A stretch of DNA of 64,000 nt. Origin: Nannocystis bainbridge. GTDB lineage: Bacteria; Myxococcota_A; Polyangia; Nannocystales; Nannocystaceae. The number at the start of each line of letters is the position of its first letter. Position 1 is the first letter of the stretch. The notes under the pieces were generated by a model. The model searched no databases. It saw only the letters and a program-made list of their open reading frames with translations, and was not told the origin of the DNA. Where the stretch lies: NCBI RefSeq assembly GCF_028368995.1, contig NZ_JAQNDL010000002.1:1937776-2001775 (forward strand), written 5' to 3'. Made by a program: the position numbers and the translations under genes. Shown one piece after another: positions 1,391 to 56,200 of the stretch.

Positions 1391-1537
1391 CCGTCTCGCG
1401 CACCGGCGCCCGGACGCCTCGCGCCCCTCTCCAGGATCGCCTCACGCGCATTCGCAGACCCAGACCGCTTCGCTGAAACTCGCTTGGCGCGCCGGGCATC
1501 ATAGTGATATCATCACGACATCAATCCGGAGCCCCGC

Positions 1538-2410
1538 ATGACCTCGATCCAGCAGAAGCGCGCTTTTTCGCTCAATGGTTTCATCGCTCTCTTCGTCTGG
1601 CTGGCCCTCGCCGCGTACGGCGCCAGCATGGTCGTCGATATCGCTCAGACCCAGGATGCCGACCGCGTGTGGCAGCCGATCGTCCTCGGCCTGGCCCTCC
1701 TGCTCGCGCTCGGCGGCTTCTTCGTCAACCAGCCCAACGAGGCGCGGGTCCTGGTCTTCTTCGGCCGCTACGTCGGCACCGTCGCCAGCGCTGGTTATCA
1801 CTTCGCCAACCCGTTCGCCGCCAAGCACCCGGTCAGCTTGCGCGTCCACAACTTCAACAGCGAGAAGCTCAAGGTCAACGACGCCCGCGGCAACCCGATC
1901 GAGATCGCCGCCGTCATCGTCTGGCGCGTCACTGACAGCGCCAAGGCCTTGCTCGAGGTCGAGAACTACCGCGGCTTCGTCGCCATCCAGAGCGAGACCG
2001 CCATCCGCGCCGTCGCCACGCGCTTCCCCTACGACTCGCACGACGGCGAGGTCGCCCTGCGCAGCCACCAGGACGAGCTCAACGCCGGTCTGCAGCAGGA
2101 GGTCCAGGCCCGCCTCGACGTCGCCGGCCTCGAGGTCGTCGACTGCCGCCTCTCGCACCTCGCCTACGCCCCCGAGATCGCCCAGGCCATGCTGCGCCGC
2201 CAGCAGGCCGAGGCCGTCGTCGCCGCCCGCCGGCAGATCGTCGAGGGCGCCATCAGCATGGTCGAGATGAGCCTCCGCCGCCTCGACGAGCACGGCATCG
2301 TCCGCCTCGACGAGGAGCGCAAGGCCTCGATGGTCAACAACCTCCTGGTCGCCCTCGTCGCCGACCGCGAGGCCCAGCCGGTGATCAACACCGGCAGCCT
2401 CTACTCGTGA
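1538..2410 (+). CDS. SPFH/band-7 domain membrane protein
   Basis: Two N-terminal TM helices; [53 protein letters not shown]; C-terminal VINTGSLY; GGAG RBS upstream. Confidence 0.93.
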
Positions 2411-6307: not shown

Positions 6308-8194
6308 GTGCCCCGCGCCGCCTTCACGTCCGGACCGAGGCGCCCCAGCCTGACGCTGGCGGCGCCTCTCCTCGTCGCGGCGCTGACCGCCTGTCCGCAG
6401 GACGAGATCGTCATCGTCGGCGAGTTCGGTCGCCCGCTCGCGCTCGGCAGCGGCGACGCGTCTCCGCTGCCGCGCCTCGTCTACCGCCCCGATGGTTGCC
6501 CCGGCGAGGCCGCGGCCGGCGGCTGCAGCTCGGTCTGCACCACCGCGCCCGAGAGCTGCCCGCCCGACGCCTGCTTCCCGCTCGTCATCGACAGCGGCAG
6601 CCCGATCACCACCCTCGTCGGCGAGGGCGAACCGGTCGCGGTGCGCAGCTGCTTCGAGGTCCGCACCGGCGAGGACGCGCTCGCCGAGGCCCCGATCGAA
6701 GGCGCGGCCGACGACGCGATCGCCCGCTTCCGCTTCGACTCGACCCCTTTCATCCGCCTGCCGTGGGCCACAGACGACGTCTCGTGGGGCTGGCAGGTCG
6801 GCGACGCCAGCGCCGCGCCGTTCGTCGGCGGCGTGCTCGGCGGCAACGTCCTGCGCCAGATGGCCGTGCGCTTCACCGACGCGCGCGGCAGCGACGGCCC
6901 GCAGATCACCTTCTACCGCGAGTTCCCCGGCGTCGAGAGCGTGCTCGCCGATCAGGGCATCGCCGCCCTCCCGCTGCAGTTCCCCGGCCTCCTGCTCGGC
7001 AAGCTGATCGACGACGTGTGCCAGCAACCCGACGGCGAGGACTGCGACCTCACCAGCTTCGGCGTGTTCGATCGCAACCGCCCCGAGAGCGCCCTGCAGT
7101 CGACCCGCATGGTCCTCGACGCCTGCCTCGGCACCCCGCCGGCCGCCGTCGTCTACAACGCCGGCAGCAACAGCTGTGAGCTGGCCTCGGGGCCAGGTAA
7201 GCCCGGCAGCTATCGCTCGCCCACCGGCGTCGCGCGGGCCGACCTCCGCTCCGGCTGCGACCTGCAGGACGTCGCGGCGAGCTCCGGCGACATCGATCAC
7301 GGCCACGACGCCTCGGTCCTGATCGCCACCGGCCTGCCTGGCCTGGTGCTGTTCGAGGACAGCGCCCAGCGCATGTTCGGCGGCCTCGATCTGCCGCCGT
7401 GCGTCGGCGACGGCGGCCTCTCGAGCGGCAGCAAGCGCGACACGCCCGCCTGTATCATGGGTCGGACGGGCCTCCTGCGCGCCCCGGGCTGGCCGCCCGC
7501 AGGCACCGCCGAGCAGCCGTTGCTCGAGCTGCGCGTTCGCAGCCTCGCCCTCGTCCCTGGTCTGACGCAGACCACCGGCCAGACCGCCTGCCAGCGGCTC
7601 GAAGTGCGCCTCCGGGCCCTGCGCTCGCAGTGCAACATCGCCGCCCGCGAGAAGGTCCCGCGCAGCGCGGCCAACGGCTGTCGCGCCGCCACCGATCGCC
7701 TGACCCCGAGCTCGGCCGGCTTCACCTCCGCCGCCGTGGTCGGCCAGGCCTTCGTCGCCAGCGACAGCCGCGTCGATCCCAGCCGGTGGATCCCGACCGT
7801 CATCGTCCCCGCCGATCACCCGCTCGTCAGCGCCGTCCGCCGCGACACCAGCCCCGAGGCGCTCCAGCTCGACGGCCTGGTCGGCACCGCCCTCCTGAGC
7901 GGCACCGACGTCGTGCTCGACTACACGGACCCGACCCCGAGCGTGCGCGTCGCCTGCAACGACCCCGACGACGGCAGCTGTCTGGCCTTGCCCGCCTGCG
8001 TCCCGCGCGAGGATCCGCGGGCGGTCGTGCCCGCCTGCTGCTACGGCCTGCCGGAGGATCTGCTGGTCAGCCTGATCCGCGACCACAGCGCCTACGGCTG
8101 CTGCGAGGCGCTCTCGCCGGCCACCATCGACGAGCTGAACAACGCCGAGGCGATCGCCGGGCGCGAGCTTCCCTGCCCCGTGCGCGGCCGCTAG
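6308..8194 (+). CDS. Cys-rich lipoprotein with two aspartyl-protease-like lobes
   Basis: Lipobox LTAC; VIDSGSPIT...GGVLGGNVL; second lobe LIATGLP...DGLVGTALL. Confidence 0.7.
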   Translation: MPRAAFTSGPRRPSLTLAAPLLVAALTACPQDEIVIVGEFGRPLALGSGDASPLPRLVYRPDGCPGEAAAGGCSSVCTTAPESCPPDACFPLVIDSGSPITTLVGEGEPVAVRSCFEVRTGEDALAEAPIEGAADDAIARFRFDSTPFIRLPWATDDVSWGWQVGDASAAPFVGGVLGGNVLRQMAVRFTDARGSDGPQITFYREFPGVESVLADQGIAALPLQFPGLLLGKLIDDVCQQPDGEDCDLTSFGVFDRNRPESALQSTRMVLDACLGTPPAAVVYNAGSNSCELASGPGKPGSYRSPTGVARADLRSGCDLQDVAASSGDIDHGHDASVLIATGLPGLVLFEDSAQRMFGGLDLPPCVGDGGLSSGSKRDTPACIMGRTGLLRAPGWPPAGTAEQPLLELRVRSLALVPGLTQTTGQTACQRLEVRLRALRSQCNIAAREKVPRSAANGCRAATDRLTPSSAGFTSAAVVGQAFVASDSRVDPSRWIPTVIVPADHPLVSAVRRDTSPEALQLDGLVGTALLSGTDVVLDYTDPTPSVRVACNDPDDGSCLALPACVPREDPRAVVPACCYGLPEDLLVSLIRDHSAYGCCEALSPATIDELNNAEAIAGRELPCPVRGR

Positions 8195-25819: not shown

Positions 25820-25894
25820 GGCCCCGGCGATGCCGCGCGCGTCCGCGATCTGCCGCTCGCTCGCCGATCGGCGCGAGGCCGCCGAGGTGCGCCG

Positions 25895-28954
<3,060 letters not shown>

Positions 28955-29261: not shown

Positions 29262-29290
29262 TCGCCGACCCGCGGACGGCCAGGTGAAGC

Positions 29291-30268
29291 ATGAAGGGCG
29301 AGCGTTGCGTGCTGTTACTGTCACACAGCGCCGAACCGCTGTGCACCGACGCCGTCGCGGGTGCCCTCGCGCGCCGCGGCGCGCGGGCCGTGCGGCTCGA
29401 CACCGATGATTTCCCGGCCGCGCTGGCGCTGCGCGGCGAGCTCGGGTTCCCCGGCGCGCGCGGGCTCGTGCTCGACGATCGGCCGCTCGTCGCCGACTCG
29501 GTGTGGCTGTGGCGGGTCTGGCCGGCCCGGCTCGATCCGCGCCTGCCCGCCGAACACCACGAGGCCGCCCAGCGCGAGAGCTTCGCCGCCCTGCGCGGCC
29601 TGCTGGACCTCTTGCCCGGCGTCCCCTGGATCGATGCGCTCGACGCCGGTCGCGCGGCCGACGACAAGGCCCGCCAACTCCGCCTCGCCTGCGACCTCGG
29701 CCTCACGATCCCTCCGACTCTGATCACCGCCGAACCCGCGGCCGTGCGCGAGTTCTTCGCCGCGCACGCCGGCCAGGTCGTCGCCAAGCTGCAGACGCCG
29801 CTGCGCCAGACGATGCGCGGCGGCGGCCTGCCGACCCGCCTGCTGCGGCGCGACGACCTCGAGGCGCTCGCCGGCCTCCGTCACTGTCCGATGATCTTCC
29901 AACGATATGTCCCGAAGGCCATGGAGCTGCGGATCGCCTGGGTCGACGGCCGGGCCCTCTGCGGCGCGCTCGACGGCGCCCGCTGCGGCGTCGACTGGCG
30001 CTACGAGTGCAGCGCGGACTGGCAGTCCCACGCCTTGCCCGAGCCGGTCCACCTGCGCCTGGCCGCGCTCATGGCCCGGCTCGGCCTGCGCCAGGGGGCC
30101 ATCGACATGATCGTCACCCCGGCCGGCGACTACGTGTTCCTCGAGGTCAACCCCACCGGCGAATGGATGATGCTGGAGAAAGAGCTCGGCCTGCCGATCA
30201 GCGAGGCGCTGGCCCAGGCTCTGCTCCGGCTGGCGAATGATTCACAGCGAGAGGCATGCAAGCCATGA
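29291..30268 (+). CDS. Graspetide ATP-grasp ligase, MvdC/MdnB-like (probably amide-forming)
   Basis: LLLSHS, RLDTDDFP, PPTLIT, LRHCPMIFQ..PK..ELR, DWR, FLEVNPTGEW. Confidence 0.9.
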   Translation: MKGERCVLLLSHSAEPLCTDAVAGALARRGARAVRLDTDDFPAALALRGELGFPGARGLVLDDRPLVADSVWLWRVWPARLDPRLPAEHHEAAQRESFAALRGLLDLLPGVPWIDALDAGRAADDKARQLRLACDLGLTIPPTLITAEPAAVREFFAAHAGQVVAKLQTPLRQTMRGGGLPTRLLRRDDLEALAGLRHCPMIFQRYVPKAMELRIAWVDGRALCGALDGARCGVDWRYECSADWQSHALPEPVHLRLAALMARLGLRQGAIDMIVTPAGDYVFLEVNPTGEWMMLEKELGLPISEALAQALLRLANDSQREACKP

Positions 30269-31269
30269 AGGTCGTGATGATCACGTTCTCCGGCGATCAG
30301 ACCGGCAAGCTCGACGAATTGCGGCAGCACCTCGAGGCGCGCGGCGCCGAGGTCCTGCGCTTCGACACCGACCGCTTCCCCTGCGAGGCCCAGGCGTGGT
30401 TCCGCCAGGACGGCGAGCGCGAGGAGCTCCGCCTGCGCTGCGACGGCCAGGAGGTTCGGCTCGAGCCCGGCGACGCGATCTGGTACCGGCGCGCGCGCTG
30501 GGCCGAGAAGCTGCCGCCGTCGCTGTCGCGCCCGCTCCGCCACGGCTGCGTGCTCGAGTCCGAAGCGCTGCTGCGCGGCATGCTGGCCGCCGCGCCCTGC
30601 TTCGTCATGGACCCGCCCGACCGCGTGCGCGAGCGCGGCCACAAGCCCGCCCAGCAGCGGCTGGCCCGCGAGCTCGGCCTCGCTACCCCGCGCACCTTGA
30701 TGACCAACGACCCGGCCGAGGCGCGCGAGTTCATCACCTCCTGCCCGCACGGCGCGATCGCCAAGATGCTGTCCGCCTTCGCCGTGCACGACCTCGACGG
30801 CGACGAGCAGGTCGTCTTCACCACCGCCCTGCGCGACGACCACCTCGCCCGGCTCGACGACCTGCGCCTGGCGCCGATGGTGTTTCAGGAGCAGGTCCGC
30901 AAGCGGCTCGAGCTGCGCATCACCGTGGTCGGCAGCCGCATGTTCGCCGCCGCCGTCGACTCGCAGCGGGTCGCCGGCGCCGAGGTCGACTGGCGCGAGC
31001 GCGGCGTCACCCTGCTGCCGTCGTGGCTCCCGTACGAGCTCCCGCCCGCGGTCGAGCGGGCGCTGGAGCGCTACATGGAGCGCATCGGCATGCAGTACAG
31101 CGCGATCGACATGCTCGTCGATCCCGCCGGGCGCCACGTATTCCTCGAGGCCAACCCCGCGGGCGAGTGCTTCTGGCTCGAGTACTATCCGCCGCACTTC
31201 CCGCTGACCGCGACGATCGCCGACGTGCTCGTCGGCGCCCCCGGAGCGCGGCGGACGACCCGTTCGTGA
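30256..31269 (+). CDS. Graspetide ATP-grasp ligase, MvdD/MdnC-like (probably ester-forming)
   Basis: RFDTDRFP, IWYRR, PRTLMTNDP, KMLSAFAV...VVFT, PMVFQE..K.LELR, DSQ..DWR, FLEANPAGE. Confidence 0.92.
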   Translation: MQAMKVVMITFSGDQTGKLDELRQHLEARGAEVLRFDTDRFPCEAQAWFRQDGEREELRLRCDGQEVRLEPGDAIWYRRARWAEKLPPSLSRPLRHGCVLESEALLRGMLAAAPCFVMDPPDRVRERGHKPAQQRLARELGLATPRTLMTNDPAEAREFITSCPHGAIAKMLSAFAVHDLDGDEQVVFTTALRDDHLARLDDLRLAPMVFQEQVRKRLELRITVVGSRMFAAAVDSQRVAGAEVDWRERGVTLLPSWLPYELPPAVERALERYMERIGMQYSAIDMLVDPAGRHVFLEANPAGECFWLEYYPPHFPLTATIADVLVGAPGARRTTRS

Positions 31270-31276
31270 CGCCGCG

Positions 31277-33085
31277 ATGACGACCGCGGGCGAACCCTCG
31301 ACCGACGGCCTGCGGGTCCGCCTCGCCCGCGGCGCCCGGGCCGTGCGGATGGCCTGGCGCAGCGCCCCGACGATCGCCGCGCTGTGGATCGCCGCGCTCA
31401 CGATCGCCGCGCTCGTGCCGATCGCCGTCGCCTGGATCGGCAAGGCCCTCGTCGACGCGATCGTCGCCGGCGCGACCGACCGGGCCCTCGCGTGGCTGGT
31501 CGGCGAGATGCTGCTGATCGTCGGCCTCGGCCTGGTCCAGCGGGCCGCCGGCACCTTGCGCGGCCTCCTCGGCGCCCGCCTCGGGCTCGCGGTCAACCTC
31601 GAGATCCTTCACAAGACCCAGCACCTCGAGCTGCGCCACTTCCAGGACCCCGACTTCTACGATCAGCTCACGCGGGCCCGCCGCGAGGCCAGCCACCGGC
31701 CCCTCGCCGTCGCCGCCGAGCTGCTCGGCCTGGCCGGCGCGCTCGTCACCTTGCTGGGCTTCGTCGCCCTCCTCCTCAGCTACAGCGTCATCGCCGTCGG
31801 CATGCTGCTCGTCGCCGCGGTCCCGGCCGCCCTCGCCGAGCTGCGGTTCTCTCGCGCGACCTTCGAGCTGCGCAACCGGCGGGCCAGCGACGCGCGCATG
31901 CTCGGCTACCTCGAGCACGTGCTCGCCAGCGACGAGCACGCCAAGGAGGTGATGACCCTCGACCTCGGCCCGCTGCTGCTCGAGCGCTGGCGCCGGCTCG
32001 GCGAGGGGCTGTGGCACGAAGAGCGCGGCCTCGCCATCGCCCGCCTGCGCTCGGTCGCCCTGCTGTCGCAGCTCGGCACCCTCTCGTTCTACGGCTGCTA
32101 CGGCGCCGTCGTCGTCCAGGCCGCCCGCGGCCAGCTCGGCCTCGGCGAGCTGACGATGTACGCCTTCGTCTTTCGCCAGGGTCAGGCCGCGTTTCAGACC
32201 ATCCTGCTCGGGCTCGGCGCCCTCTACGAGCACGACCTCTACATGTCGAACCTGCTGCGCTTCCTCGCCATCCCCGTGGCGCCGACGCAGCCTCCGCGGC
32301 TCCCCGCCGCGCCCGCGCGAGGCGAGCGCGGGATCCGCTTCGAGGGCGTCGGCTTCCGTTACCCCGATCAAGACGGCTTCGCGCTGCGCAACATCGACCT
32401 GTCCATCGGGCCAGGCGAGACCGTCGCCCTCGTCGGCCCCAACGGCGCCGGCAAGTCGACGTTCATCAAGCTGCTCGCGGGCCTCTACGAGCCGACCGAG
32501 GGCCGGATCCTGCTCGACGGCCGCGACCTCCGCGACATCCCGCGCCCCGAGCTGCGCCGCCGGCTCGCCGTCGTCTTCCAGGACTACAATCAATACCAAT
32601 TGTCCGCGCGCGAGAACGTCGGCTTCGGCGACCCCGCCCACGTCGGCGACGACGCGCGGATCACCGCCGCGCTCGCGGCCGGCGGCGCCGCCGACGTCGT
32701 CGCCGCCCTGCCGGTCGGCCTCGACGCCCAGCTCGGCCGCTGGTTCGCCGGCGGCGTCGAGCTCTCGGGCGGACAGTGGCAGCGCATCGCCCTCGCCCGG
32801 GCCTTCATGCGGCGTGACGCCGACGTCATGATCCTCGACGAGCCGACCGCCGCCCTCGACGTCGACGCCGAAGCCGAGGTCTTCACGCGCGTCCGCGAGC
32901 TCGCCGCCGGCCGCATCGTCTGCCTGATCTCGCACCGCTTCGCCAACGTGCGCGTGGCCGACCGGATCGTCGTGCTGGCCGCCAGCGGCGTCGTCGAGCA
33001 GGGCGACCACAGCCGGCTGCTCGCCGCTGACGGCGTCTACGCGGCCATGTTCCGCAAGCAGGCCCGCGGCTACGCGTGCGACTGA
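31277..33085 (+). CDS. ABC exporter, permease plus ATPase (MdnE-like cluster transporter)
   Basis: TM domain; GPNGAGKST; LSGGQWQRIALAR; ILDEPT; ISHR. Confidence 0.93.
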   Translation: MTTAGEPSTDGLRVRLARGARAVRMAWRSAPTIAALWIAALTIAALVPIAVAWIGKALVDAIVAGATDRALAWLVGEMLLIVGLGLVQRAAGTLRGLLGARLGLAVNLEILHKTQHLELRHFQDPDFYDQLTRARREASHRPLAVAAELLGLAGALVTLLGFVALLLSYSVIAVGMLLVAAVPAALAELRFSRATFELRNRRASDARMLGYLEHVLASDEHAKEVMTLDLGPLLLERWRRLGEGLWHEERGLAIARLRSVALLSQLGTLSFYGCYGAVVVQAARGQLGLGELTMYAFVFRQGQAAFQTILLGLGALYEHDLYMSNLLRFLAIPVAPTQPPRLPAAPARGERGIRFEGVGFRYPDQDGFALRNIDLSIGPGETVALVGPNGAGKSTFIKLLAGLYEPTEGRILLDGRDLRDIPRPELRRRLAVVFQDYNQYQLSARENVGFGDPAHVGDDARITAALAAGGAADVVAALPVGLDAQLGRWFAGGVELSGGQWQRIALARAFMRRDADVMILDEPTAALDVDAEAEVFTRVRELAAGRIVCLISHRFANVRVADRIVVLAASGVVEQGDHSRLLAADGVYAAMFRKQARGYACD

Positions 33086-46781: not shown

Positions 46782-48290
46782 TCAGGCACCCCAACCGCCG
46801 ACCACCGGCGGATTCGCGTTCGATTTCCAAAGCTTCGGGCTCATCGCCCCGTCCAGAGTCACCCACCCGCGCGGGTCGATGTTCGCCGGCGCCTGCCAGC
46901 CGAACGGATCGATCGCGTAGCGGTGGAAGTTGTGCGAGCCGCCGGTGCACGCCGTGCAGCTGTCGGCGTTGGGAACGAACCACCGATCCTTCTGCGTCGG
47001 CGTGCCGACATTCGTCTCGCGCATCACCGTGAGGTGCAGGTGCGGCCCGGTCGTCCAGCCGCCGTTGCCGACGTCGCCCAGGACCGTGAACTTGGTGACG
47101 TTGGTGCCGACCGCCGGCGTGACCGTGCGCTTGACGTGGAAGTAACCCGCCACGAAGCTCTCGCTGTAGGTCACCGGCGACGTCACGACCTTGTGGCGGA
47201 CGTACACCTCGCCCTGCAGCAGCCCGTCCCAGCCCGAATTGCGGTAATCGATGTAATCACCGGCCGCGATGGCGTTCACGCAGGCGACGCTGGGGTCGCC
47301 CCAGCCCGAGCACACCGCCGGCCAACCGGCCGCGAAGTCGCGGTTGATGCAGCCCCCGTTCTTCTTCTTGGCCGCCTCGGCCGTCGCGCACGCCACCGCC
47401 GAGGTCTGATAATCACGGCTGACGATCACCCGGCCGTCCGTCATTGCATAGAGGTCAGTGTTCTCGGGCGCGCCCCAGTCCCAGCCGTCGTGATCGTCGA
47501 TATAGTTGGCGGAGATCGCGTGGCCCTTGAAGTTGACCTTCGACGCCAGCACGTCGAGGTACGGCAGCAGCGCCCCGAACATCCCGGTGTTCAGCGTCGG
47601 CGCGCCCTCGCGAGCGAAGTCGACGCCCGTCCCGATCGACGAGAACGAGGCCGGCGCGCGCTCGAAGATCGGCAGCTCGAGCGGCGACACCGTCAACACG
47701 CAGTTGGGCTCCTCGGCGTCCACCGACGCGTTGAACGCCCACGTGAGCGGATCGCCGCCCGACCCGCGCCAGATCCCCGGGCCCCACGTCTGACCGTCGC
47801 ACCAGATCACCGCCTCGTTGGTGCCCGCGGCCGAGAACAGGCCGGCCTTGCGGATCGTACCTGCCCCGTGCTGGCTGACCAGATAGCCGCACGGATCGCC
47901 GCCGTTGGTGTCCCACGAATACGCCCAACCGCCGCCGGGCCACGTCATGCTGCAATAGTGGCCGTAGCCGGCCGGCTCCGCGATCTCGCCCGCCGCCAGG
48001 CTCGGCCGGGCCGGGACTGCCAGGTCGGCTGTCTCCGGGGACAGGTGCTGCGACATCTCGCCCGGCGCGAACACGCGGACATCGGGCGCGTCCTCGGTGC
48101 CCGCGAACCCGGCGAACGCCGCGTTCGCCTCCTCACCGACGAGCCGATCGTGCTCGGCCACCTCGGTGATCGCCCGCGGGCCGTCCGGCGCGATCGTCGG
48201 CGCATCCTCGGCCTCCGCCGCGGGCGCCTCGTCACAACCACCAATAGGGGCACATAGACCGATCCATAGCACGTGCTTGAAGGTATTCAC
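46782..48290 (-). CDS. Lipoprotein with M23 metallopeptidase domain
   Basis: Lipobox IGGC; HDGWD (HxxxD), YFH, VGNGGWTTGPHLH; AGGAG RBS before GTG 48290. Confidence 0.88.
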   Translation of the reverse strand: MNTFKHVLWIGLCAPIGGCDEAPAAEAEDAPTIAPDGPRAITEVAEHDRLVGEEANAAFAGFAGTEDAPDVRVFAPGEMSQHLSPETADLAVPARPSLAAGEIAEPAGYGHYCSMTWPGGGWAYSWDTNGGDPCGYLVSQHGAGTIRKAGLFSAAGTNEAVIWCDGQTWGPGIWRGSGGDPLTWAFNASVDAEEPNCVLTVSPLELPIFERAPASFSSIGTGVDFAREGAPTLNTGMFGALLPYLDVLASKVNFKGHAISANYIDDHDGWDWGAPENTDLYAMTDGRVIVSRDYQTSAVACATAEAAKKKNGGCINRDFAAGWPAVCSGWGDPSVACVNAIAAGDYIDYRNSGWDGLLQGEVYVRHKVVTSPVTYSESFVAGYFHVKRTVTPAVGTNVTKFTVLGDVGNGGWTTGPHLHLTVMRETNVGTPTQKDRWFVPNADSCTACTGGSHNFHRYAIDPFGWQAPANIDPRGWVTLDGAMSPKLWKSNANPPVVGGWGA

Positions 48291-48618
48291 GGTGAACTCC
48301 TGGGCCTCGTCTCCGCGAGGCACGAACGTCAGGTGACCGTGCGCGGCGGAACAATTGCGGCCCGTGTCCCCTTCGCGGCGATTCGCCGCGAAGGTCCGAC
48401 GTCACGCAGCGCCTCGCAATTGATCGGCCACCCGCCGACACCACCACGCGCTCGACCTCCGCGAGTCGACCCCCGCCGCGAGCCCGTCGATTCGTGCGAT
48501 TGCCTCGAACGACACGCTGCGCCCGGCCACCTCGCGGACCCGCGCCTCCACGCCTCCGCACCGCGGCGCGGTTTCGGCCCGTCAGCTCCGCGATCATCGG
48601 TGCTAAGGTCGCCTGCGC

Positions 48619-50097
48619 GTGGACAACGAGCCCAAACGCTACGTGTACAACAAGCAGGCCGGGGCCCTGCAGGAGGCCGCAGCGGCCCCTCCGGGCGTGC
48701 GCACGCGGCTGGCGATGCGCCCGAGCAGCAGCATCGCCCAGTCGCTGCTGCCGTCCCAACTCGACGACCAGGCCGCCGCCAACGCGGCCCCCGAACCGCT
48801 GCAGCGCGACAGCTCGCGGCTGCCCCGACCCCCGCGGCCCGCCGACAGCGGCCGCGATCCCATTCGACCGACCCGGAGGCCCGGCATGTTCTCATTCACC
48901 ATCGAGGACGGCGAGCACGTCCTGATGATCCACAAGAACGGCGCGATGGAGGAGCTCGTCGGGCCGAAGCGCGTGTCGACCCTCGGCCGCACCTTCCGCC
49001 GCATGGACCACTACGTCGCCCACCCCGGCGAATTCCTGGTCGTGCGCTACCGCGACGGTCGCCAGGAGCACCTCGTCGGCCCCGCGCACCTGTGGCTCGA
49101 TCCGCGCAAGCACCTCTCCGTCACCCGCGAGGAGGGCTTGCAGCTGGCCGCCAAGGAGGCCGTCGTCATCTACGCCCGCGGCGACGCCGGCGAGGTCACG
49201 CGCCGCGTGCTGCAGGGCCCGGCCGTGTTCGTGGCCCAGCCGGGCGAATGGCTGCACTCCTTCTCGTGGCACGGCTCCTCCGGCACCGGCTATCGCAAGG
49301 TCCCGAACGCCCTGGTCTTCGAGAAGCTGTGGCTGATGCCCGACCAGATGTACCACGACGTCGAGGACGTGCGGACCGCCGACGACGCCGTCATCACGGT
49401 GCGGCTCATGATCTTCTTCGAGCTCGTCGACATCGAGCTCATGCTGGCCACCAGCCACGATCCGATCGGCGACTTCGTCAACGCCGCCACCAGCGACGTC
49501 GTCGATTTTCTCGGCCGCCACGACCTCGCCTCCTTCAAGCTCCACACCGACCAACTCGGCGACCTCGCCACCTACCGCCAGCTGACCGCGCGCGCCGGCC
49601 AGTGCGGCTACCGGATCGGCAAGGTCGTCTACCGCGGCTTCGACGCCCCGCCCTCGCTGCAGCAGATGCTCGATCAGGCGATCGAGTCGCGCACCCGCCT
49701 GCAGCTCGAGCGCGCCACCCAGCAGCAGGCGCAGGAGCTCGAGGACTTCAAGCTCGAGCGCCAGCTCGGCCGCGGTGAGCGTCAGCGGGCCGACGGCGCC
49801 GCCGAGCAGGCCCACGCGCTGGCCCTCGAGAAATCGCGCCGCGCCGCCGCGATCGAGGCCGACGCCGCCCGCAGCGAGTTTCAGCGGGCCCAGCGACGCC
49901 TCGACCAGGAGCGTGCCCTCGCCGACGAGCGCGCCCGCCATGACGAGGAGAGCCGCCACCTCGCCGCCCTGCACGGGCTCGGCGTCGACCTCACCGCGCT
50001 CCTCACCCAACACCGCGCCGACCAGGTCATCGAGCTGCGCGGCGACGGCGAGGGCGCCCACGTCCACGTCGACGCGCCCCGCCGCGAGCCGCGCTGA
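48619..50097 (+). CDS. Short major vault protein (MVP)-like protein: vault-type repeats, SPFH shoulder, coiled coil (alternative start ATG 48886 with GGAGG)
   Basis: Three ...GP repeats (ELVGPK, HLVGPA, RVLQGPAVFVAQPGE); LMPDQMYHDVEDVRTADDA shoulder; LQQMLDQAIESRT plus long helical tail. Confidence 0.75.
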   Translation: MDNEPKRYVYNKQAGALQEAAAAPPGVRTRLAMRPSSSIAQSLLPSQLDDQAAANAAPEPLQRDSSRLPRPPRPADSGRDPIRPTRRPGMFSFTIEDGEHVLMIHKNGAMEELVGPKRVSTLGRTFRRMDHYVAHPGEFLVVRYRDGRQEHLVGPAHLWLDPRKHLSVTREEGLQLAAKEAVVIYARGDAGEVTRRVLQGPAVFVAQPGEWLHSFSWHGSSGTGYRKVPNALVFEKLWLMPDQMYHDVEDVRTADDAVITVRLMIFFELVDIELMLATSHDPIGDFVNAATSDVVDFLGRHDLASFKLHTDQLGDLATYRQLTARAGQCGYRIGKVVYRGFDAPPSLQQMLDQAIESRTRLQLERATQQQAQELEDFKLERQLGRGERQRADGAAEQAHALALEKSRRAAAIEADAARSEFQRAQRRLDQERALADERARHDEESRHLAALHGLGVDLTALLTQHRADQVIELRGDGEGAHVHVDAPRREPR

Positions 50098-50098
50098 G

Positions 50099-50175
50099 AG
50101 ACATGTCCCTGAAGGCATGGCCTCGGGGACATGCCTTATTCGACATGTTCCAATGAACATGTCCGAAGGGACAAT
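50099..50175. repeat. 14-bp-phased CATG array (5 units)
   Basis: CATG at 50102, 50116, 50130, 50144, 50158; fills the convergent gap. Confidence 0.95.
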
Positions 50176-51114
50176 CTACACCAGCCGCGCCGCGGCCGCC
50201 CGGATCGCCGCCCGGATCGCGGCCTCGTCGGCCTCGTCGGGCGCCTGCAGGGCCACCGGGAACGCCGCGGTGAGGTCGATGAGCACGTCGAGCTCGACCT
50301 CGTCGAGGATCGCCTGGCGGTCGTCGCGGCCCCACTTCGACGCCGCGCTGGCGATCCGCACCGGGTTCGTCAGCCGCTCCGCCCACGCCACCAGGGCCGC
50401 GCGATCGGGGCGCTGGTTCGGGTCCCAGGCCTCGGCCTCCTGGAACCGCTGCTCGTCGAACTCGGCGATCTTGCGCTTGTAGGTCGGCCGCGTGCCGGGA
50501 CGCGCGCGCGCGTCGGGGCGGACCACCAGCCCCTCGGCGAAGTTGTCGGCCAGCCCCGGCAAGCCCAGCGCGGCCGGCACGCGCGTCGGCGCTCGCGTCG
50601 GCGCCGCCTCGACGTGCGGGCGCGGCCCCGTGCGCACCACCGGCGGCACCATCATCCCTGTCTCTCGGGACAGCTCAGCCAGCTCGCTCCACCCCAGCAG
50701 CTCGCCCTCGTCGTCGTCGCTCGTCGCCACCAGCGCGTCGAAGGCCGCCCAGCGCAGGTCGGGCGCGTACCAGATCCCCGTCTGCACCGGCTGCAGCCCC
50801 GGCACCGCCGCCACCTCCGCGTGCGGATAGCCGCCGCCGAACAGCTCGCCGTAGAACACCACCAGCGGCGCGCCGAGCCGGCCAGCCGCCGCCCGCGCGA
50901 CCTCGCTGAGCCCGGCCCGCACCAGCTGCCAGCCGAAGAACGGATCGCCGTCGGCCAGCCACGCCTTGCGCTTGCCGAAGCGCACCTGCTCGCCCGCGAC
51001 CGCGATCAGCATCTGCGCCCCGTGGATCTTCTCGAGGGCGACCCATGGCCCGCCGGGGACGAGCCCGAGCGACTCGCCGGGCCCCGCGATCTTGCCGTAG
51101 TAGCGGTGACGCAC
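50176..51114 (-). CDS. RNA ligase, Rnl2 family (GTG start 51114 or 51156)
   Basis: Motif I WVALEKIHGAQ; FGKR; YGELFGGGYPH; AFD; AEGLVVRP; YKRK; C-terminal RIASAASKWG. Confidence 0.88.
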   Translation of the reverse strand: MRHRYYGKIAGPGESLGLVPGGPWVALEKIHGAQMLIAVAGEQVRFGKRKAWLADGDPFFGWQLVRAGLSEVARAAAGRLGAPLVVFYGELFGGGYPHAEVAAVPGLQPVQTGIWYAPDLRWAAFDALVATSDDDEGELLGWSELAELSRETGMMVPPVVRTGPRPHVEAAPTRAPTRVPAALGLPGLADNFAEGLVVRPDARARPGTRPTYKRKIAEFDEQRFQEAEAWDPNQRPDRAALVAWAERLTNPVRIASAASKWGRDDRQAILDEVELDVLIDLTAAFPVALQAPDEADEAAIRAAIRAAAARLV

Positions 51115-51291
51115 CGCGCCAGGGTAGCCGAACCGCGCCCCGTCGCGCGCGGCCACCGGCGCGCGCGCCCGCGCTTTCGTCTTTGCATCTCATGTCCCGA
51201 GAGACATGTCCGAAAGCACCGGGCCACTCGCGCGCGCCCGCGGACTCCGCCTCCCGCCGCGCGCCGCTCTGTGGCACTGTCGGCGCCCGCC

Positions 51292-52056
51292 ATGCTCGCC
51301 AAGATCTACGTCCAGCGCGACCCGACCACCGGCGAGTTCATCAACAAGAACGTCTACAACGCCTGGTACGGCTTCACCAAGATGGGCGTGTGGGCCGAGT
51401 CGTTCGTGTGGTCCGACCTCTACGAGGGCCGGCTCGCGCTCGATCGTGACACCGCCGTGATCGGCGGGATCCTCACCGTCCGCACCGCCCTCGCCCGGCT
51501 CGGCGCCACCGATCCCGAGAACCTCGACTACCCGCCCGTGCTCGAGCCGTTCCTGCGCCGGCGCGTGCGCCGGGCCTCGATCCGCGAGGCCCACGCGCTG
51601 TGCCGCGACGATCGCTTCGACCCGCCCGTGTTCATCAAGCCCGTCACCGGGCAAAAGGAGTTCACGGGCCACGTGCTCGCCGTCTACCGCGACCTCTTGC
51701 GCACGGCCGGCTGGGCCCACGAGCAGCCCGACACGCCGGTGTGGCTGTCGGAGGTCGTCGACTTCACGGCCGAGTGGCGCTACTTCGTCCACGCTGGCGA
51801 GATCGTCGGCGTCGGCCACTACCACGGCGACCCGCTGCGCGCCCCCGATCCCGGGGTCGTGCGCGCCGCCGTCGCCGCCTGGACCGACGCCCCCTCCGCC
51901 TACGTCATCGACTTCGGCGTGCTCGCCGACGGCACCACCGCGATGGTCGAGGTCAACGACGGCTTCGCGTTCGGCTGCTACGGCCTCAACCCCTACGCCC
52001 ACGCCCGCATGCTGGCCGCCCGCTGGGCCGAGATGGTCGGCCTGGACCGCGCCTGA
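51292..52056 (+). CDS. ATP-grasp protein, R2K clade (DUF4343-like)
   Basis: DYPPVLEPFLRRRV, VFIKPVTGQKEFTG, SEVVDFTAEWRYFV, IDFGV, VEVNDGFAFGCYG. Confidence 0.85.
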   Translation: MLAKIYVQRDPTTGEFINKNVYNAWYGFTKMGVWAESFVWSDLYEGRLALDRDTAVIGGILTVRTALARLGATDPENLDYPPVLEPFLRRRVRRASIREAHALCRDDRFDPPVFIKPVTGQKEFTGHVLAVYRDLLRTAGWAHEQPDTPVWLSEVVDFTAEWRYFVHAGEIVGVGHYHGDPLRAPDPGVVRAAVAAWTDAPSAYVIDFGVLADGTTAMVEVNDGFAFGCYGLNPYAHARMLAARWAEMVGLDRA

Positions 52057-52172: not shown

Positions 52173-53954
52173 TCAGTAGTTGTGAGCCAGGATCCCCCCG
52201 GCGAAGTACGTATCCGGCGCCTCGACCGAGAGCTCCCACACCTCGCTGGTGCCGTCGGCGACGATGCTCTCGATCGGGACCTCGGCGCCGTCGCTTCCGA
52301 GCAGCCGCTCGCCGACCCGCAGCTCCTTCGTGACCCGGAACGCCCCCACGCGCGGCAGCCACAGCGGGTGCTCCGCGGTGACGCGCAGCGCTCGACCGTC
52401 CGCGAGTCGCAGCTGCAACACCGGCTGCTCGCCGCGGGACACCCGGCGCAGCACGTGGGCCACGCGCGCCTCGCCGCTCAGCACGTCGTGCGACAGCACC
52501 CTCGCTCCGGGCGCCAGCGCCTCGATCGCCACCGGCCCGTCGGGCGTCTCGATCGGCGTGCCGGTGGCGAAGCACGTCGCGCCCGAGAGCCCCCAGCGCG
52601 CCGCGCCCGAGACTGGCGTCAGCGTCCCGTCCGCCGCGCTTGCGCAGGCCAGCAACGCGACATCGCTCGAGCAGCCGACCACGCCGCGGAAGCCGGGCTG
52701 CTCGCCGTCGCCGCCGACCTCGAGCGCCAGGGTCAGAGGCAGTTTCGCGGTCGCGGGGTGGCTATGCCAAGCGTCCCACAGCGCCCGCGGCACGTCGGCG
52801 AACACCTGCTGCGGATCGCACGGGAGCGGCACCCGGGCGCCTCGCGGTCCCGGATGGCGCCCTGCGATCAAGCGGATCGACTCGGCGCCGGCCGGCCAGG
52901 TCCGCACCGTCAGCGCCGCGTCCAGCATGCAGTCGTAGCTCTCGCGCGCGGCCACCAGCGCGACCTCGGCGGCGCGCGTCGGATCCTCGTCCGCGGCCAG
53001 CGGCGTGGACTCGCCGGCCGAGGGCTTGCCGTCGCGCACCAGCAGGCGGTCGAGGAAGAACGTGTCCGGCGCGCTGACGTCGGTGATGTCGGAGCCGTAC
53101 GTCTTCTTGCGCTCCGTCACTTCGCGGGCCTCGACCGGCCCCTCGCGACCGAACAGTCGATCGCCCGCGACCACCTCCGACGCGCGCACCCACGCCGCCG
53201 TCTCGACGCGCCACAGCTCGTGGTTCGGCAGCACCACGATCGGCTCGCCCGTCGTCAGCCGGACCTCCAGCACCCGGCTCGACCGTCGCTCTCGCAGCGC
53301 CCGCACCTCGACCCGCACGCGCGCGCCCGTCGTCGGGTCGGCGCCGATCAGCTGCATGCCGCGCTGCGGGGCGACCAGGTCGGCCGTCTCGCCCGAAGGC
53401 GTCAGCAGGCGATGCTCGCCGTACCAGCTCGGATCGGCCGCGACCTCCGTATGCGCCGCGACCGGGCCGCGCGAGGCATGGAGCGCGCCGCTCGAGTCGC
53501 GCATGCACAGCCCGAGCGCGTAGGACTTCCCGCAGGCGATGGCCGGCGGCTCGACGCGCACGCGCAGCCGCGTCGGTCCGCCGGTCGTGTCCGGGGGCGC
53601 GACGGTCAGCGCTTCACGCGGCAGCTCGAGCATCACCGGCCGCGAGCAATCGACCGCAGCGACGGATGCGTTCGCCGACTCCCGGGCCACGACCACCAGC
53701 GACACCAGCGGCGCAGCGAGCTGGACCGCCGGCACGTCGACGTCGAGCGCGCAGTGATCGAAACTACCGACGAGCGACGGGACCACCAGCATCGCCTCGT
53801 CGAGCTCCGGAACCGGTGCCGGAGCCGGCGCTGGTGCCGGCGCCGGCGGCAACGCCTGGGGCCTCGTCTCGGGCCGCGGAGCGGCGGCATCGGGGGCATC
53901 TGGCGTGCAGCCCGCCAGCGAGACGAGGACGGCGGAGACGATCGCGCGGCGCAT
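52173..53954 (-). CDS. Lipoprotein with two Hint (intein-like) domains
   Basis: Lipobox LAGC; C-terminal CFATGTPIETPDG...VTAEHPLW...YFAGGILAHNY*; internal degenerate Hint SWYGEHRLLTPSG...VLPNHELW...TFFLDRLLVRD. Confidence 0.88.
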   Translation of the reverse strand: MRRAIVSAVLVSLAGCTPDAPDAAAPRPETRPQALPPAPAPAPAPAPVPELDEAMLVVPSLVGSFDHCALDVDVPAVQLAAPLVSLVVVARESANASVAAVDCSRPVMLELPREALTVAPPDTTGGPTRLRVRVEPPAIACGKSYALGLCMRDSSGALHASRGPVAAHTEVAADPSWYGEHRLLTPSGETADLVAPQRGMQLIGADPTTGARVRVEVRALRERRSSRVLEVRLTTGEPIVVLPNHELWRVETAAWVRASEVVAGDRLFGREGPVEAREVTERKKTYGSDITDVSAPDTFFLDRLLVRDGKPSAGESTPLAADEDPTRAAEVALVAARESYDCMLDAALTVRTWPAGAESIRLIAGRHPGPRGARVPLPCDPQQVFADVPRALWDAWHSHPATAKLPLTLALEVGGDGEQPGFRGVVGCSSDVALLACASAADGTLTPVSGAARWGLSGATCFATGTPIETPDGPVAIEALAPGARVLSHDVLSGEARVAHVLRRVSRGEQPVLQLRLADGRALRVTAEHPLWLPRVGAFRVTKELRVGERLLGSDGAEVPIESIVADGTSEVWELSVEAPDTYFAGGILAHNY

Positions 53955-54106
53955 GTGCGACCCAATACGAGCTCGACCCCATGTTATTCGCGCGCTCGCG
54001 CCGCCCCGGCCGCGTCGTGCCTCACACCCCCGGCCATCACTCAGGGACATGTCGCTCGGGACATGTCCGATCGTCCCGAGCGCCCGAGGTCGACAGCCCC
54101 CGCCCC

Positions 54107-54667
54107 TCAGTGGACGCGATAGCCCCCGTGCTCCGCAGCGATCTCGTTGTAGCGGGCGAACCCCAGGATCCACTTGCGGCCGTCCTCGCGGGCCACCCCG
54201 GCGTCCGGGAAATAGTCCTGGGCGATCACCTCCACGTGCTCGCGCAGCTTGCGGGCCAGCACCGCGCACTCCTCCGGCGTCACCAGCCAGCCATCGTTCG
54301 ACTGGAACTTGAACGCCCCCACGCGCCCGTCCTTCAGCGATGACGACTCCACCGCCGCCTCGTGCGCCTGCAGGTACGCGCGCGCGGCCGCCAGCTCCGC
54401 CTCTGTCGGCGCCGGCCCCTCTGCCGCCTCGCCGCGCAGCGCCGCAAACGCCGCGAGCACCCGCTCCTCGTCGAGCTCGCCCAGCTCGAGCTCCGGGATC
54501 GGGGCCGCCTCCCCGTAGTGGATCGCGTCGGCCCACTCGAGCGCGCCCACGGTCGTCGCCATGCCCCGCACGTTGAAGCGGTAGTACCCCGCGACCCCGC
54601 TCGAGTTCGGCAGCTCGTCCTCGTCCACCGTCGGGGGGGTGCGCACCATCTGCAGGTCGTAGCCCAT
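54107..54667 (-). CDS. Hypothetical protein
   Basis: Coding-like composition; MGYD start, KFQSNDGWLVTPEEC, HGGYRV end. Confidence 0.8.
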   Translation of the reverse strand: MGYDLQMVRTPPTVDEDELPNSSGVAGYYRFNVRGMATTVGALEWADAIHYGEAAPIPELELGELDEERVLAAFAALRGEAAEGPAPTEAELAAARAYLQAHEAAVESSSLKDGRVGAFKFQSNDGWLVTPEECAVLARKLREHVEVIAQDYFPDAGVAREDGRKWILGFARYNEIAAEHGGYRVH

Positions 54668-54757
54668 CGTCCAGGCCTACCATGGATCGCCCGCGCGCGG
54701 CGTCGCCTCACGCCCGCGCCTGCGGCCTGCGAGCGGCCTGCGTGCCAAGCTCTCGCC

Positions 54758-56200
54758 GTGCCGCCCTCCGCACGTTATCGGCCGGATCCCCGGTACCTCG
54801 CGCTCGGCGACGGCTTCGCCGACGTCGTCGCCCCCGCGCGCTTCCCCAGCCATGTCCTGCGGCACCGCGACGAGCGCTGGGCCGCGCGGGTCGGCCTCGA
54901 CAGCCTCGGCGACGACGAATGGGAGCGGCACTTCGCCCGCTTCGAGCCGCTGCCCGGCAACCTGCCCGACCCGCTCGCCCTGCGCTACCACGGCCATCAA
55001 TTCGGCAGCTACAACCCCGCGCTCGGCGACGGCCGCGGCTTCTTGTTCGCCCAGCTGCGCGACGGCTTCGACGGTCGCCTGCTCGACCTCGGCACCAAGG
55101 GCAGCGGCGCCACCCCGTACGCCCGCGGCGGCGACGGCCGCCTCACCCTCAAGGGCGGCGTGCGCGAGATCCTCGCCGCCGAGCTGCTCGCGGCCCGCGG
55201 CGTCGACACCTGCAAGATCCTCAGCGTGTTCGAGACCGGCGAGCGGCTCATCCGCGGCGACGAGCCCTCGCCCACGCGCTCGTGCGTGCTCGTGCGGCTC
55301 AGCCACTCCAACCTGCGGTTCGGCACCTTCCAGCGCCACGCTTACCACCGCGACCTCGCCCGCCTCGGCGCCCTGGTCGACTACGCCGTCGAGCACCACT
55401 TCCCGGCCGCGCGCCGCGACGACCTCGCCGTCACCACCGCCGCGCTGGTCCGTCTCGTCGCCTGTCGCGCCGCCGCCACCGCCGCCGCCTGGACCGTCGC
55501 CGGCTTCGTGCACGGCGTCCTCAACACCGACAACCTCAACCTCACCGGCGAGAGCTTCGACTACGGCCCCTGGCGCTTCCTGCCGACCTACGACCTCGGC
55601 TTCACCGCCGCCTACTTCGACGAGACCGGCTTCTACGCCTTCGGTCGCCAGCCCAACGCCGTGCTGTGGAACCTCGGGCGCCTGGCCGAGGCCGTACTCC
55701 CGCTGACCACGCGAGATGTCCTCGAGGACAGCCTCGGCGCGTTCGAGCCCGCCTTCCACGCCGCCGTGCGCCGCGCCTTCCTCGACCGCCTCGGCCTCGC
55801 CCCGCGCGGCGACGCGGCCGACGACGGCGTCATGGACGCCTGCTACGCCTTCCTCGCCGCGCGCCGCCTCGACCTCGACCGCTTCTACTTCGACTGGTAC
55901 GGCGGCGAGGCCAGCGCCGCCCGGGCCCTCGCCGGCCCGGCCGCCGCCCACTACGACCACCCCGAGTTCATGGAGGTGCGCCGCGCCTGGACCGCGCACG
56001 CCCCCGCCGCCCCCGAGCGCCTCGGCCACCCGTACTACGGCGGCGCCGCCCCGTGCTCGCTGCTCATCGACGAGGTCGAGGCGCTGTGGGCCGCGATCGC
56101 CGACCGCGACGACTGGGCCCCGCTGGCTGCCAAGCTGGCGGCGATCCGCGAGTTCGCCACCCTCCACGGCCGCGACCCGTCGGTGATGGACATGCCCTGA
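54758..56200 (+). CDS. selO: Protein adenylyltransferase SelO/YdiU
   Basis: YHGHQFG..NPALGDGRG, KGSGATPYARGGDGR, GFVHGVLNTDN, DYGP. Confidence 0.95.
   Translation: MPPSARYRPDPRYLALGDGFADVVAPARFPSHVLRHRDERWAARVGLDSLGDDEWERHFARFEPLPGNLPDPLALRYHGHQFGSYNPALGDGRGFLFAQLRDGFDGRLLDLGTKGSGATPYARGGDGRLTLKGGVREILAAELLAARGVDTCKILSVFETGERLIRGDEPSPTRSCVLVRLSHSNLRFGTFQRHAYHRDLARLGALVDYAVEHHFPAARRDDLAVTTAALVRLVACRAAATAAAWTVAGFVHGVLNTDNLNLTGESFDYGPWRFLPTYDLGFTAAYFDETGFYAFGRQPNAVLWNLGRLAEAVLPLTTRDVLEDSLGAFEPAFHAAVRRAFLDRLGLAPRGDAADDGVMDACYAFLAARRLDLDRFYFDWYGGEASAARALAGPAAAHYDHPEFMEVRRAWTAHAPAAPERLGHPYYGGAAPCSLLIDEVEALWAAIADRDDWAPLAAKLAAIREFATLHGRDPSVMDMP

Follow-up and report, generated by a model that had tools for sequence, protein, structure and literature searches.

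The 64,000-nucleotide stretch of Nannocystis bainbridge DNA analysed here (the window; positions 1,937,776 to 2,001,775 of contig NZ_JAQNDL010000002.1, assembly GCF_028368995.1) carries at 48619-50097, on the plus strand, a gene for a short protein that resembles the eukaryotic major vault protein (MVP). The predicted fold and the profile comparisons support its placement as a short-form member of the MVP branch of the SPFH superfamily, and not as an ordinary flotillin or stomatin. We think it probable, judging from the model, the sequence and the analogy with solved relatives, that copies of this protein pack into ring-shaped cups with their N-terminal tethers at the rim.

Structural and sequence links to MVP

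What does the protein most closely resemble? The AlphaFold2 monomer model, from which its anatomy is also taken, was built on 88 sequences and has a mean pLDDT (predicted local distance difference test) of 78.4, with 358 of the 492 residues at 70 or above. Compared by Foldseek with the structures in the PDB, this model returned MVP at each of ranks 1-12, with E-values from 4.3e-12 to 1.2e-8 over 436-500 aligned columns. These matches span the repeats, the shoulder and the helix, at 17-19% identity. Erlin, stomatin, flotillin, prohibitin and HflK/C make up a second tier (E ~1e-7 to 2.5e-5, at most 360 columns), the top non-MVP match being at E 1.5e-7 over 325 columns; these membrane proteins match the shoulder and helix only. 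An initial annotation, made from the DNA alone, had read the gene as MVP-like and would have given way to best hits among ordinary SPFH proteins with no vault-repeat fold. The best 12 structure matches are instead all MVP. The second-tier matches place in the protein an SPFH fold followed by a helix of the oligomerising type, and the long, cap-type helix that follows the shoulder is shorter than the cap helix of MVP.

Similar builds turn up beyond the bacteria. A structure search of BFVD found giant-virus SPFH proteins of similar build (E 1e-10) and no other viral matches. The look-alike clusters of the ESM Atlas carry Band_7, MVP_shoulder and Vault_3, and point to comparable short forms, 400-520 aa long, in some eukaryotes and viruses as well. 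The window itself holds an ordinary SPFH/Band_7 gene at 1508-2410 (+) (Pfam E 6.9e-25), which the hidden Markov model (HMM) of our protein's shoulder misses at E<=1; it thus belongs to a different family.

Can the relationship to MVP be followed in the sequence? The Pfam model MVP_shoulder gave no match for the protein at E<=1. Weak Pfam matches recur among 88 members of its family, to Vault_3 in 29 (best E 0.0063), to Band_7 in 19 and to MVP_shoulder in 13 (best E 0.0076). The profile search also returned some longer relatives, of 600-810 aa, which match the family profile in several stretches. Two of them exceed the cut-off of Pfam Vault_3 (28.8 bits), P0132 scoring 44.1 and P0134 30.3, and the distant relative P0189 passes that of Band_7 (27.2 bits against 23.6). 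The family profile (A1) and a profile of 18 long forms (A2) were aligned by hhalign at a probability of 100 and E 1e-109 over 393 columns. When A2 was searched against all PDB sequences, seven matches were obtained at E<=10 and 7/7 were MVP (E 7.7e-6 to 1.3e-4). Since A1 matches A2, and A2 in turn matches MVP, the sequence homology of the protein to MVP is transitive.

The A2 alignment pairs the family's repeat 3, loop and shoulder with residues 479-597 of rat MVP, repeat 3 falling on 479-497. The initial annotation had proposed that motifs of the protein follow the last repeat and shoulder of MVP, and the HMM alignment reproduces that pairing in the same register. Its second pairing, with the start of the cap helix, appears in the same alignment, but that stretch is not significant on its own.

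The long form P0132 (809 aa) is modelled with about 11 repeats, a shoulder and a 131-aa helix. Among the matches listed for this model against the PDB, the best 15 are all MVP, including crystal fragments of repeats R1-R7, at E 1.6e-21 to 1.1e-7; phmmer with the P0132 sequence found nothing in the PDB. Word-based protein searches for longer forms yielded one protein of 942 aa fused to an MshEN domain, and such a search with P0132 returned only P0132 itself.

The family and its anatomy

The family is large. A profile search that covered 1.84 billion representatives gathered 1390 clusters (50% identity) at E<=1e-3, with 356 at E<=1e-30, and a database search with the protein gave one 100% identical entry and 1443 homologues. 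Relatives at 92-93% identity follow, and one of these comes, according to its source, from Nannocystis pusilla. A scan of one genome per species produced 174 pattern matches, of which 152 were confirmed relatives; the best 80 loci were kept for the locus counts given below. In a tree of 79 rows the submitters' labels read Planctomycetota for 41, Myxococcota for 24 and Pseudomonadota for 8, with no phylum label on 6, the window included. The rows labelled Pseudomonadota are bins nesting inside the Planctomycetota and Myxococcota groups. The tree divides largely along phylum lines, the identity between phyla is 49-64%, and the window's protein nests within Nannocystis. Carriers include named cultured Nannocystis, Gemmata, Singulisphaera, Zavarzinella and Limnoglobus. 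In the databases the members go by 'hypothetical', 'Band 7 domain-containing' or 'HflC-like'.

Repeat number varies as a natural series in which three is the commonest count. The repeat HMM, run on 126 representatives whose shoulder is complete, counts three repeats in 65 of them and two in 37; a further 19 have four to eight, and 5 have one or none. In our protein it finds exactly three.

The coding sequence (48619-50097, +) begins with GTG and ends with the stop codon at 50095-50097; its predicted product has 492 aa, a mass of 55.1 kDa and an isoelectric point of 6.5. The first 89 residues, overlooked by the initial annotation, form an extension of three parts. Residues 1-22 (48619-48684) are a conserved peptide delimited by the N-termini of homologues, with pLDDT below 40. 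Its core is an aromatic-x-aromatic pair followed by G-A-L-Q/N-E, and Y8, G15 and L17 are invariant. There follows a variable, disordered tether, residues 23-76 (48685-48846), the least conserved part of the protein (mean majority fraction 0.25). The model has residues 1-66 as disordered, with pLDDT below 50 throughout. Across the family the tether measures 38-97 aa and is rich in A, P, R, S and Q. We considered an arginine-rich, RNA-binding tail and rejected it, the median net charge of the tether being only +1. The third part, residues 77-89 (48847-48885), packs on repeat 1 in the model and carries a G-(R/L)-D-P/T motif; pLDDT recovers to 76-79 over residues 70-89. In the family this motif, G-x-D-P/T, lies about 12 residues ahead of repeat 1 with D80 nearly invariant, and it is kept even where the methionine at residue 90 is replaced.

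A loose regular expression finds the N-terminal peptide in 42 of 78 loci, in both phyla. Of its 38 occurrences in the sampled DNA, 36 lie inside the family's own open reading frame (ORF) and the other two just upstream; the peptide is specific to this family in that DNA. The two exceptions, near 7570 in locus L027 and near 7435 in L051, are peptides encoded immediately before the family gene and split off from it by a stop or a frame change, which points to a split gene or to an error of sequencing in these two bins.

In planctomycete members the peptide is separated from the repeats by a further domain, PF05157 (MshEN/T2SSE_N); the scan detected it in 41 of 76 N-terminal regions and in 0/24 of those labelled Myxococcota. 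At 12 of 78 loci, which belong to the Gemmataceae or to adjoining branches of the tree, the tether also has a motif like the amphipathic helix of TatA; at three loci Pfam scores this motif at E 8e-5 to 4.5e-4. Both modules are known from settings in which they work at the cytoplasmic membrane face. The Nannocystis protein has neither, and its N-terminus is polar.

The three beta repeats, of about 42 aa each, align with one another on a common pattern that closes with an invariant GP. Repeat 1 comprises residues 90-130 (48886-49008; strands at 92-128 in the model, GP at 115/116), repeat 2 residues 131-173 (49009-49137; strands 131-172, GP 154/155) and repeat 3 residues 174-217 (49138-49269; strands 174-212, GP 200/201). 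The first two are also defined by the self-alignment of the repeats and by the repeat HMM, and the third is the counterpart of the last MVP repeat. The three short beta repeats seen by the initial annotation are borne out by the modelled strands, the self-alignment and the HMM alike. The GP that it placed in each is invariant in 88/88 aligned family members; it stands, however, some two thirds of the way along the repeat rather than at the end of it.

Between repeat 3 and the shoulder runs a loop, residues 218-235 (49270-49323), delimited by its conservation and by its alignment to MVP 498-514. Residues 218-233 have pLDDT below 50, yet they are strongly conserved; loop and shoulder together show the highest mean majority fraction, 0.85. 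The SPFH-type shoulder, residues 236-344 (49324-49650), begins with an invariant P-D-Q-M-Y-H-D and is placed by the model, by Foldseek and by alignment to the MVP shoulder (515-597). Over residues 242-342 the model shows two long strands, four helices and one strand, the SPFH/shoulder fold, where the initial annotation had expected an SPFH-like segment. A single long helix follows, residues 345-453 (49651-49977), which corresponds in the model to the cap helix of MVP and to the first coiled coil (CC1) of SPFH proteins. Its presence agrees with the coiled coil foreseen by the initial annotation, its length of 109 aa does not agree with the 120 or so given there. The first 40 or so residues of the helix are conserved, the middle is variable, and its length in the family ranges from 76 to 120 aa.

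The C-terminal region, residues 454-492 (49978-50094), contains a strongly conserved motif of about 22 residues that the long forms share and that had also gone unnoticed. It consists of a short helix and a probable strand, to which AlphaFold2 gives low confidence in the monomer, and is a candidate crown or cap-closing element. The hydropathy scan reveals no segment of transmembrane type, as the initial annotation had held. The highest 19-residue value, 1.84, falls at residues 258-276, inside the SPFH core, and that stretch contains charged residues.

Might the conserved loop serve a purpose of its own? The most conserved stretch of the family, residues 217-256, is partly unmodelled by AlphaFold2 and aligns with MVP 498-534. 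In human MVP the 'keyhole loop' belongs to this region, as does a pocket between subunits to which NAD+ and ADP bind at tens of micromolar (PMC12280208; this and the other papers are cited from the accessible parts of their text). The loop of our protein, with the basic residues R226, K227 and K236, aligns with the keyhole loop, and P241, D242 and M244 pair, in the A2-MVP alignment, with P520, D521 and F522, residues named in that paper. K227 is present in 103/140 representatives and F234 in 143/148; across 150 representatives D255 never varies, R252 and T253 hardly do, and K236, P241 and Y245 occur commonly. The loop and the P-D-Q-M-Y-H-D that follows it may be a ligand or interface site, a candidate put forward from sequence as a lead only.

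How does the protein compare with the systems already described? Eukaryotic MVP (rat and human; PDB 4V60, 7PKZ, 9BW5, 9R86) has the same order of parts, namely repeats, SPFH-type shoulder, long cap helix and C-terminal cap element, and like our protein it has no membrane anchor. It differs in having nine repeats of about 55 aa where ours has three of about 42, in lacking the 89-aa N-terminal tether with its conserved peptide, and in its cap helix of about 155 aa, longer than the 109 aa found here. The helix of MVP has been described as making 42 turns (Santos 2023 preprint), and the same preprint reports two phage MVPs. The membrane SPFH cages (stomatin, flotillin, erlin, prohibitin, HflK/C, QmcA) share the SPFH fold, the long helix and a C-terminal crown with our protein. 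They have anchors or lipid attachment and no beta repeats, whereas our protein has repeats, fails the Band_7 cut-off and has no NfeD or FtsH partner gene.

Among prokaryotes, MVP homologues were previously known from only a few bacteria, according to the accessible text of PMC12962969 (2026). To these the paper adds ten from Asgard archaea, which have five repeats and for which it models a closed cup of ten. These resemble our protein in being prokaryotic, in having fewer repeats than MVP and in combining a shoulder with a cap helix. The family described here is bacterial, most often of three repeats, hundreds of clusters strong and equipped with an N-terminal tether; the two are set apart by description. 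Sequence surveys, the sole earlier source on bacterial homologues, have reported full-length forms (Daly et al. 2012; Daly 2013, PMC3762200; Sokolskyi 2019 preprint) from Saprospira, Microscilla, Plesiocystis, Corallococcus and Enhygromyxa, in part the same myxobacterial lineage as ours. They possess a Band-7-like shoulder and run to about 800 aa, in contrast with the 492 aa of our protein. The long forms found here, such as P0132, are of the same family as our protein by the profile comparison given above. A full-text search of the literature returned no description of the three-repeat form, of the N-terminal peptide or of the spread in Planctomycetota, although figures, extended-data trees and supplements of those papers may include members. 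The three-repeat form is thus part of a large bacterial family not described in the papers searched.

Probable ring-shaped cups and their alternatives

How might the copies be arranged? In the solved SPFH-type assemblies the subunits form large rings and the helices a domed roof (PMC12624060). Because all solved proteins that combine a shoulder or SPFH domain with a long helix form large rings, a side-by-side assembly is to be expected here too. A published regression, subunits = 0.1782 x helix length + 10.22 (PMC12624060, Fig. 7d legend), gives 29.6 subunits for a helix of 109 aa and 24-32 across the helix lengths of the family. On this reckoning the copies would pack side by side into a ring-shaped cup of about 30 subunits and about 1.6 MDa. 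Repeats and shoulder would make its wall, the helices its roof, and the C-terminal motif would close the crown. By analogy with MVP, whose N-termini lie at the vault waist, the tethers would exit from the rim, each bearing its docking peptide.

Such cups could then either pair rim to rim, forming a closed 'mini-vault' with the tethers inside, or remain single, held by their tethers to a partner or to a membrane. The MshEN and TatA-like modules of the planctomycete forms incline us to the tethered cup; the lack of an anchor, together with MVP as the nearest relative, inclines us to the closed particle. The free closed particle and the cup tethered to a partner or membrane are, to us, equally plausible.

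The closed particle would be soluble, about 3.3 MDa in mass, with two cups of some 30 subunits joined through repeat 1 as the halves of MVP are, and with about 60 luminal tethers whose peptides capture cargo. By analogy with MVP it is a possibility, and we rate it below an even chance by some way. MVP is the closest structural relative of the protein and, in the accessible text of PMC12624060, the sole SPFH-type assembly that achieves complete enclosure without a membrane. The protein is free of any membrane segment and its gene stands alone, both as befits such a shell, and the segment that leads into repeat 1 is conserved and takes an ordered shape in the model, which makes the rim a defined surface. 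Yet none of our results shows a rim-to-rim contact, the ~1.3 Mb of loci sampled yielded no cargo-like protein with the same peptide, and modules of the membrane face (MshEN/T2SSE_N in 41/76, TatA-like in 12/78) would be odd furnishings for the tethers of a sealed lumen. More ambitious, and somewhat less probable again, is the proposal that Myxococcota and Planctomycetota both build a closed, membrane-free miniature vault of two ~30-subunit cups, in which some 60 docking peptides are tethered in the lumen, with MshEN besides in the planctomycetes, and the nucleotide pocket of MVP is kept. The single cup would be one SPFH dome that does not close. Its N-terminal peptides, aided in planctomycetes by the MshEN or amphipathic modules, would fasten it to a protein of the membrane or to the membrane's cytoplasmic surface, where it might shelter or organise a partner in the manner of the flotillin, stomatin and HflK/C domes. 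To this analogy we give the same limited credence as to the closed, soluble particle. Every solved SPFH assembly except the vault sits on a membrane (accessible text of PMC12624060), and the shoulder here has the SPFH fold; a conserved peptide carried by a flexible linker of 38-97 aa is built like a tether; and among the relatives, some of which are labelled 'HflC-like' by their sources, MshEN/T2SSE_N and TatA-like motifs are found. It is harder to reconcile with a protein that has no transmembrane segment or hairpin, with a linker too long and floppy to seal a rim onto a membrane, and with the lack of any conserved partner gene such as NfeD or FtsH. The Nannocystis protein also lacks both the MshEN domain and the amphipathic motif, and the window's ordinary Band_7 gene (1508-2410) is, as we have seen, of another family.

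There might also be no cage at all. The protein would then be a monomeric or low-order coiled-coil scaffold or sensor, its repeats and shoulder binding a ligand or a protein and its input coming from nearby kinases; this we regard as improbable. The conservation, with 55-60% identity between phyla, is very high for a purely structural shell, and the most conserved parts are the loop and the stretch resembling a pocket. In 22/81 loci a Ser/Thr kinase gene lies within 8 kb, and in L017, L025 and L028 such a gene is the immediate upstream neighbour on the same strand. But kinases are very numerous in both phyla, and those found here occupy varied positions on both strands. All solved proteins with a shoulder and a long helix form large rings, as read from the Foldseek list and the accessible text of PMC12624060, and the C-terminal motif common to the long forms suits an element of assembly.

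We return to the preferred reading, that of an MVP-branch protein assembling into ring-shaped cups, against which a number of results have to be set. In direct sequence tests the protein falls below the Pfam cut-offs, with Band_7 at 15.4 bits (E 0.02; cut-off 23.6) and Vault_3, at residues 189-217, at 13.3 bits (E 0.096; cut-off 28.8). NCBIfam gave nothing for it; phmmer and the family profile A1, searched against the PDB sequences, found no MVP and only chance matches to eL8 and a LacI-type binding protein. The Foldseek TM-scores, at 0.28-0.48, are modest, the model being a long flexible rod. Few complexes went into fitting the helix-length rule, and the single helix of the model may really be two. 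As for the pocket, the equivalent of MVP D521 (D242) is an aspartate in only 92/148 representatives and in 4/18 long forms, the counterpart of L517 is mostly arginine, and W545 lies within an insertion absent from the family and so has no counterpart. The domain alignment that carries the pocket pairing has, by itself, an independent E-value (i-Evalue) of 1.6. Nor do other vault components come to light nearby. No Rfam family reaches its gathering score in the 64-kb window, and no TROVE, PARP or TEP1 gene was seen among the scanned ORFs of the window or as a conserved feature of the 80 loci, local DNA being the extent of both searches.

The gene and its surroundings

Is the gene correctly delimited? 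The GC content of its three codon positions, 0.77/0.45/0.94, is the coding pattern of this window, which has 72.7% GC overall. Because the ORF carries this signature, the overlapping ORFs in other frames are read as shadows. The full-length homologues open with the same conserved N-terminal peptide as our protein, and so the GTG start is right and the first 89 residues are real protein; the supposed internal methionine at residue 90 is L, V, G or A in some relatives.

The neighbour upstream, an M23 peptidase gene (46782-48323), is divergent from our gene, and the neighbour downstream, an RNA ligase gene (50176-51156, -), is convergent with it. For this reason the gene looks monocistronic, that is, transcribed alone. 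A scan for promoters and terminators revealed no promoter-like site, and a search for the sigma-54 consensus with three mismatches allowed returned fewer matches than chance, which is uninformative. No neighbour gene is conserved across the 80 loci; such a stand-alone gene is as expected for a self-assembling shell protein. The recurrent neighbours are Ser/Thr kinases (22 loci), histidine kinases (16), sigma-54 activators (9) and a pyridoxal phosphate-dependent (PLP) enzyme (11, all in the planctomycete half of the tree). A conserved operon partner was considered and rejected, these being common families or local synteny. A defence system was likewise rejected, PADLOC having given a chance-level match for the protein (E 0.009) and nothing for six neighbours, as was a phage origin, tblastn against 50,697 phage records having given no match. 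Two copies of the gene, in loci L001 and L002, lie at the ends of two contigs of Nannocystis sp. RBIL2 with zero branch length between them; they are more likely an assembly overlap than a true duplication.

The RNA-ligase-family gene is recognised by PF09414 (E 5e-16), and ORFs matching the one at its position occur in the same place in five loci, the window among them, all closely related to the window. A long plus-strand ORF in the region 50131-52056 holds an ATP-grasp domain of the R2K clade (E 3e-41). As the domain is confined to the last third of this ORF, the real start of the gene must lie after the RNA ligase. Beyond it, on the minus strand, an 836-aa ORF (52173-54683) ends in a pretoxin-HINT domain (E 1e-13), a mark of polymorphic toxin genes; past this domain the ORF holds nothing recognisable, and PADLOC gave no match. 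A SelO protein adenylyltransferase gene (E 2e-120) lies at 54362-56200 (+). Further upstream are a large Ser/Thr kinase fused to WD40 repeats (25820-28954, +) and, at 29288-33085 (+), two adjacent pre-ATP-grasp genes of MvdD type (E 1e-16 and 7e-25) followed by an ABC transporter, which looks like a graspetide or microviridin-type peptide cluster.

What might be learned from this family? The Myxococcota and Planctomycetota are noted for their eukaryote-like cell biology. Their short MVP-branch proteins offer a small subunit that should express easily, a family whose repeat numbers form a natural series (3 to about 11) and, in the conserved peptide of the tether, a bait with which to seek a partner or cargo. 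The function of vaults is still called unclear or mysterious in recent papers (PMC12624060 among them, in its accessible text). If the proteins do assemble, they would show how the lengths of wall and helix set the size of a cage, and might show what cages of the vault type are for; the family could then serve as a simple model of their workings. Should the miniature vault prove true, it would be a genetically tractable, minimal vault from which the core function could be read.

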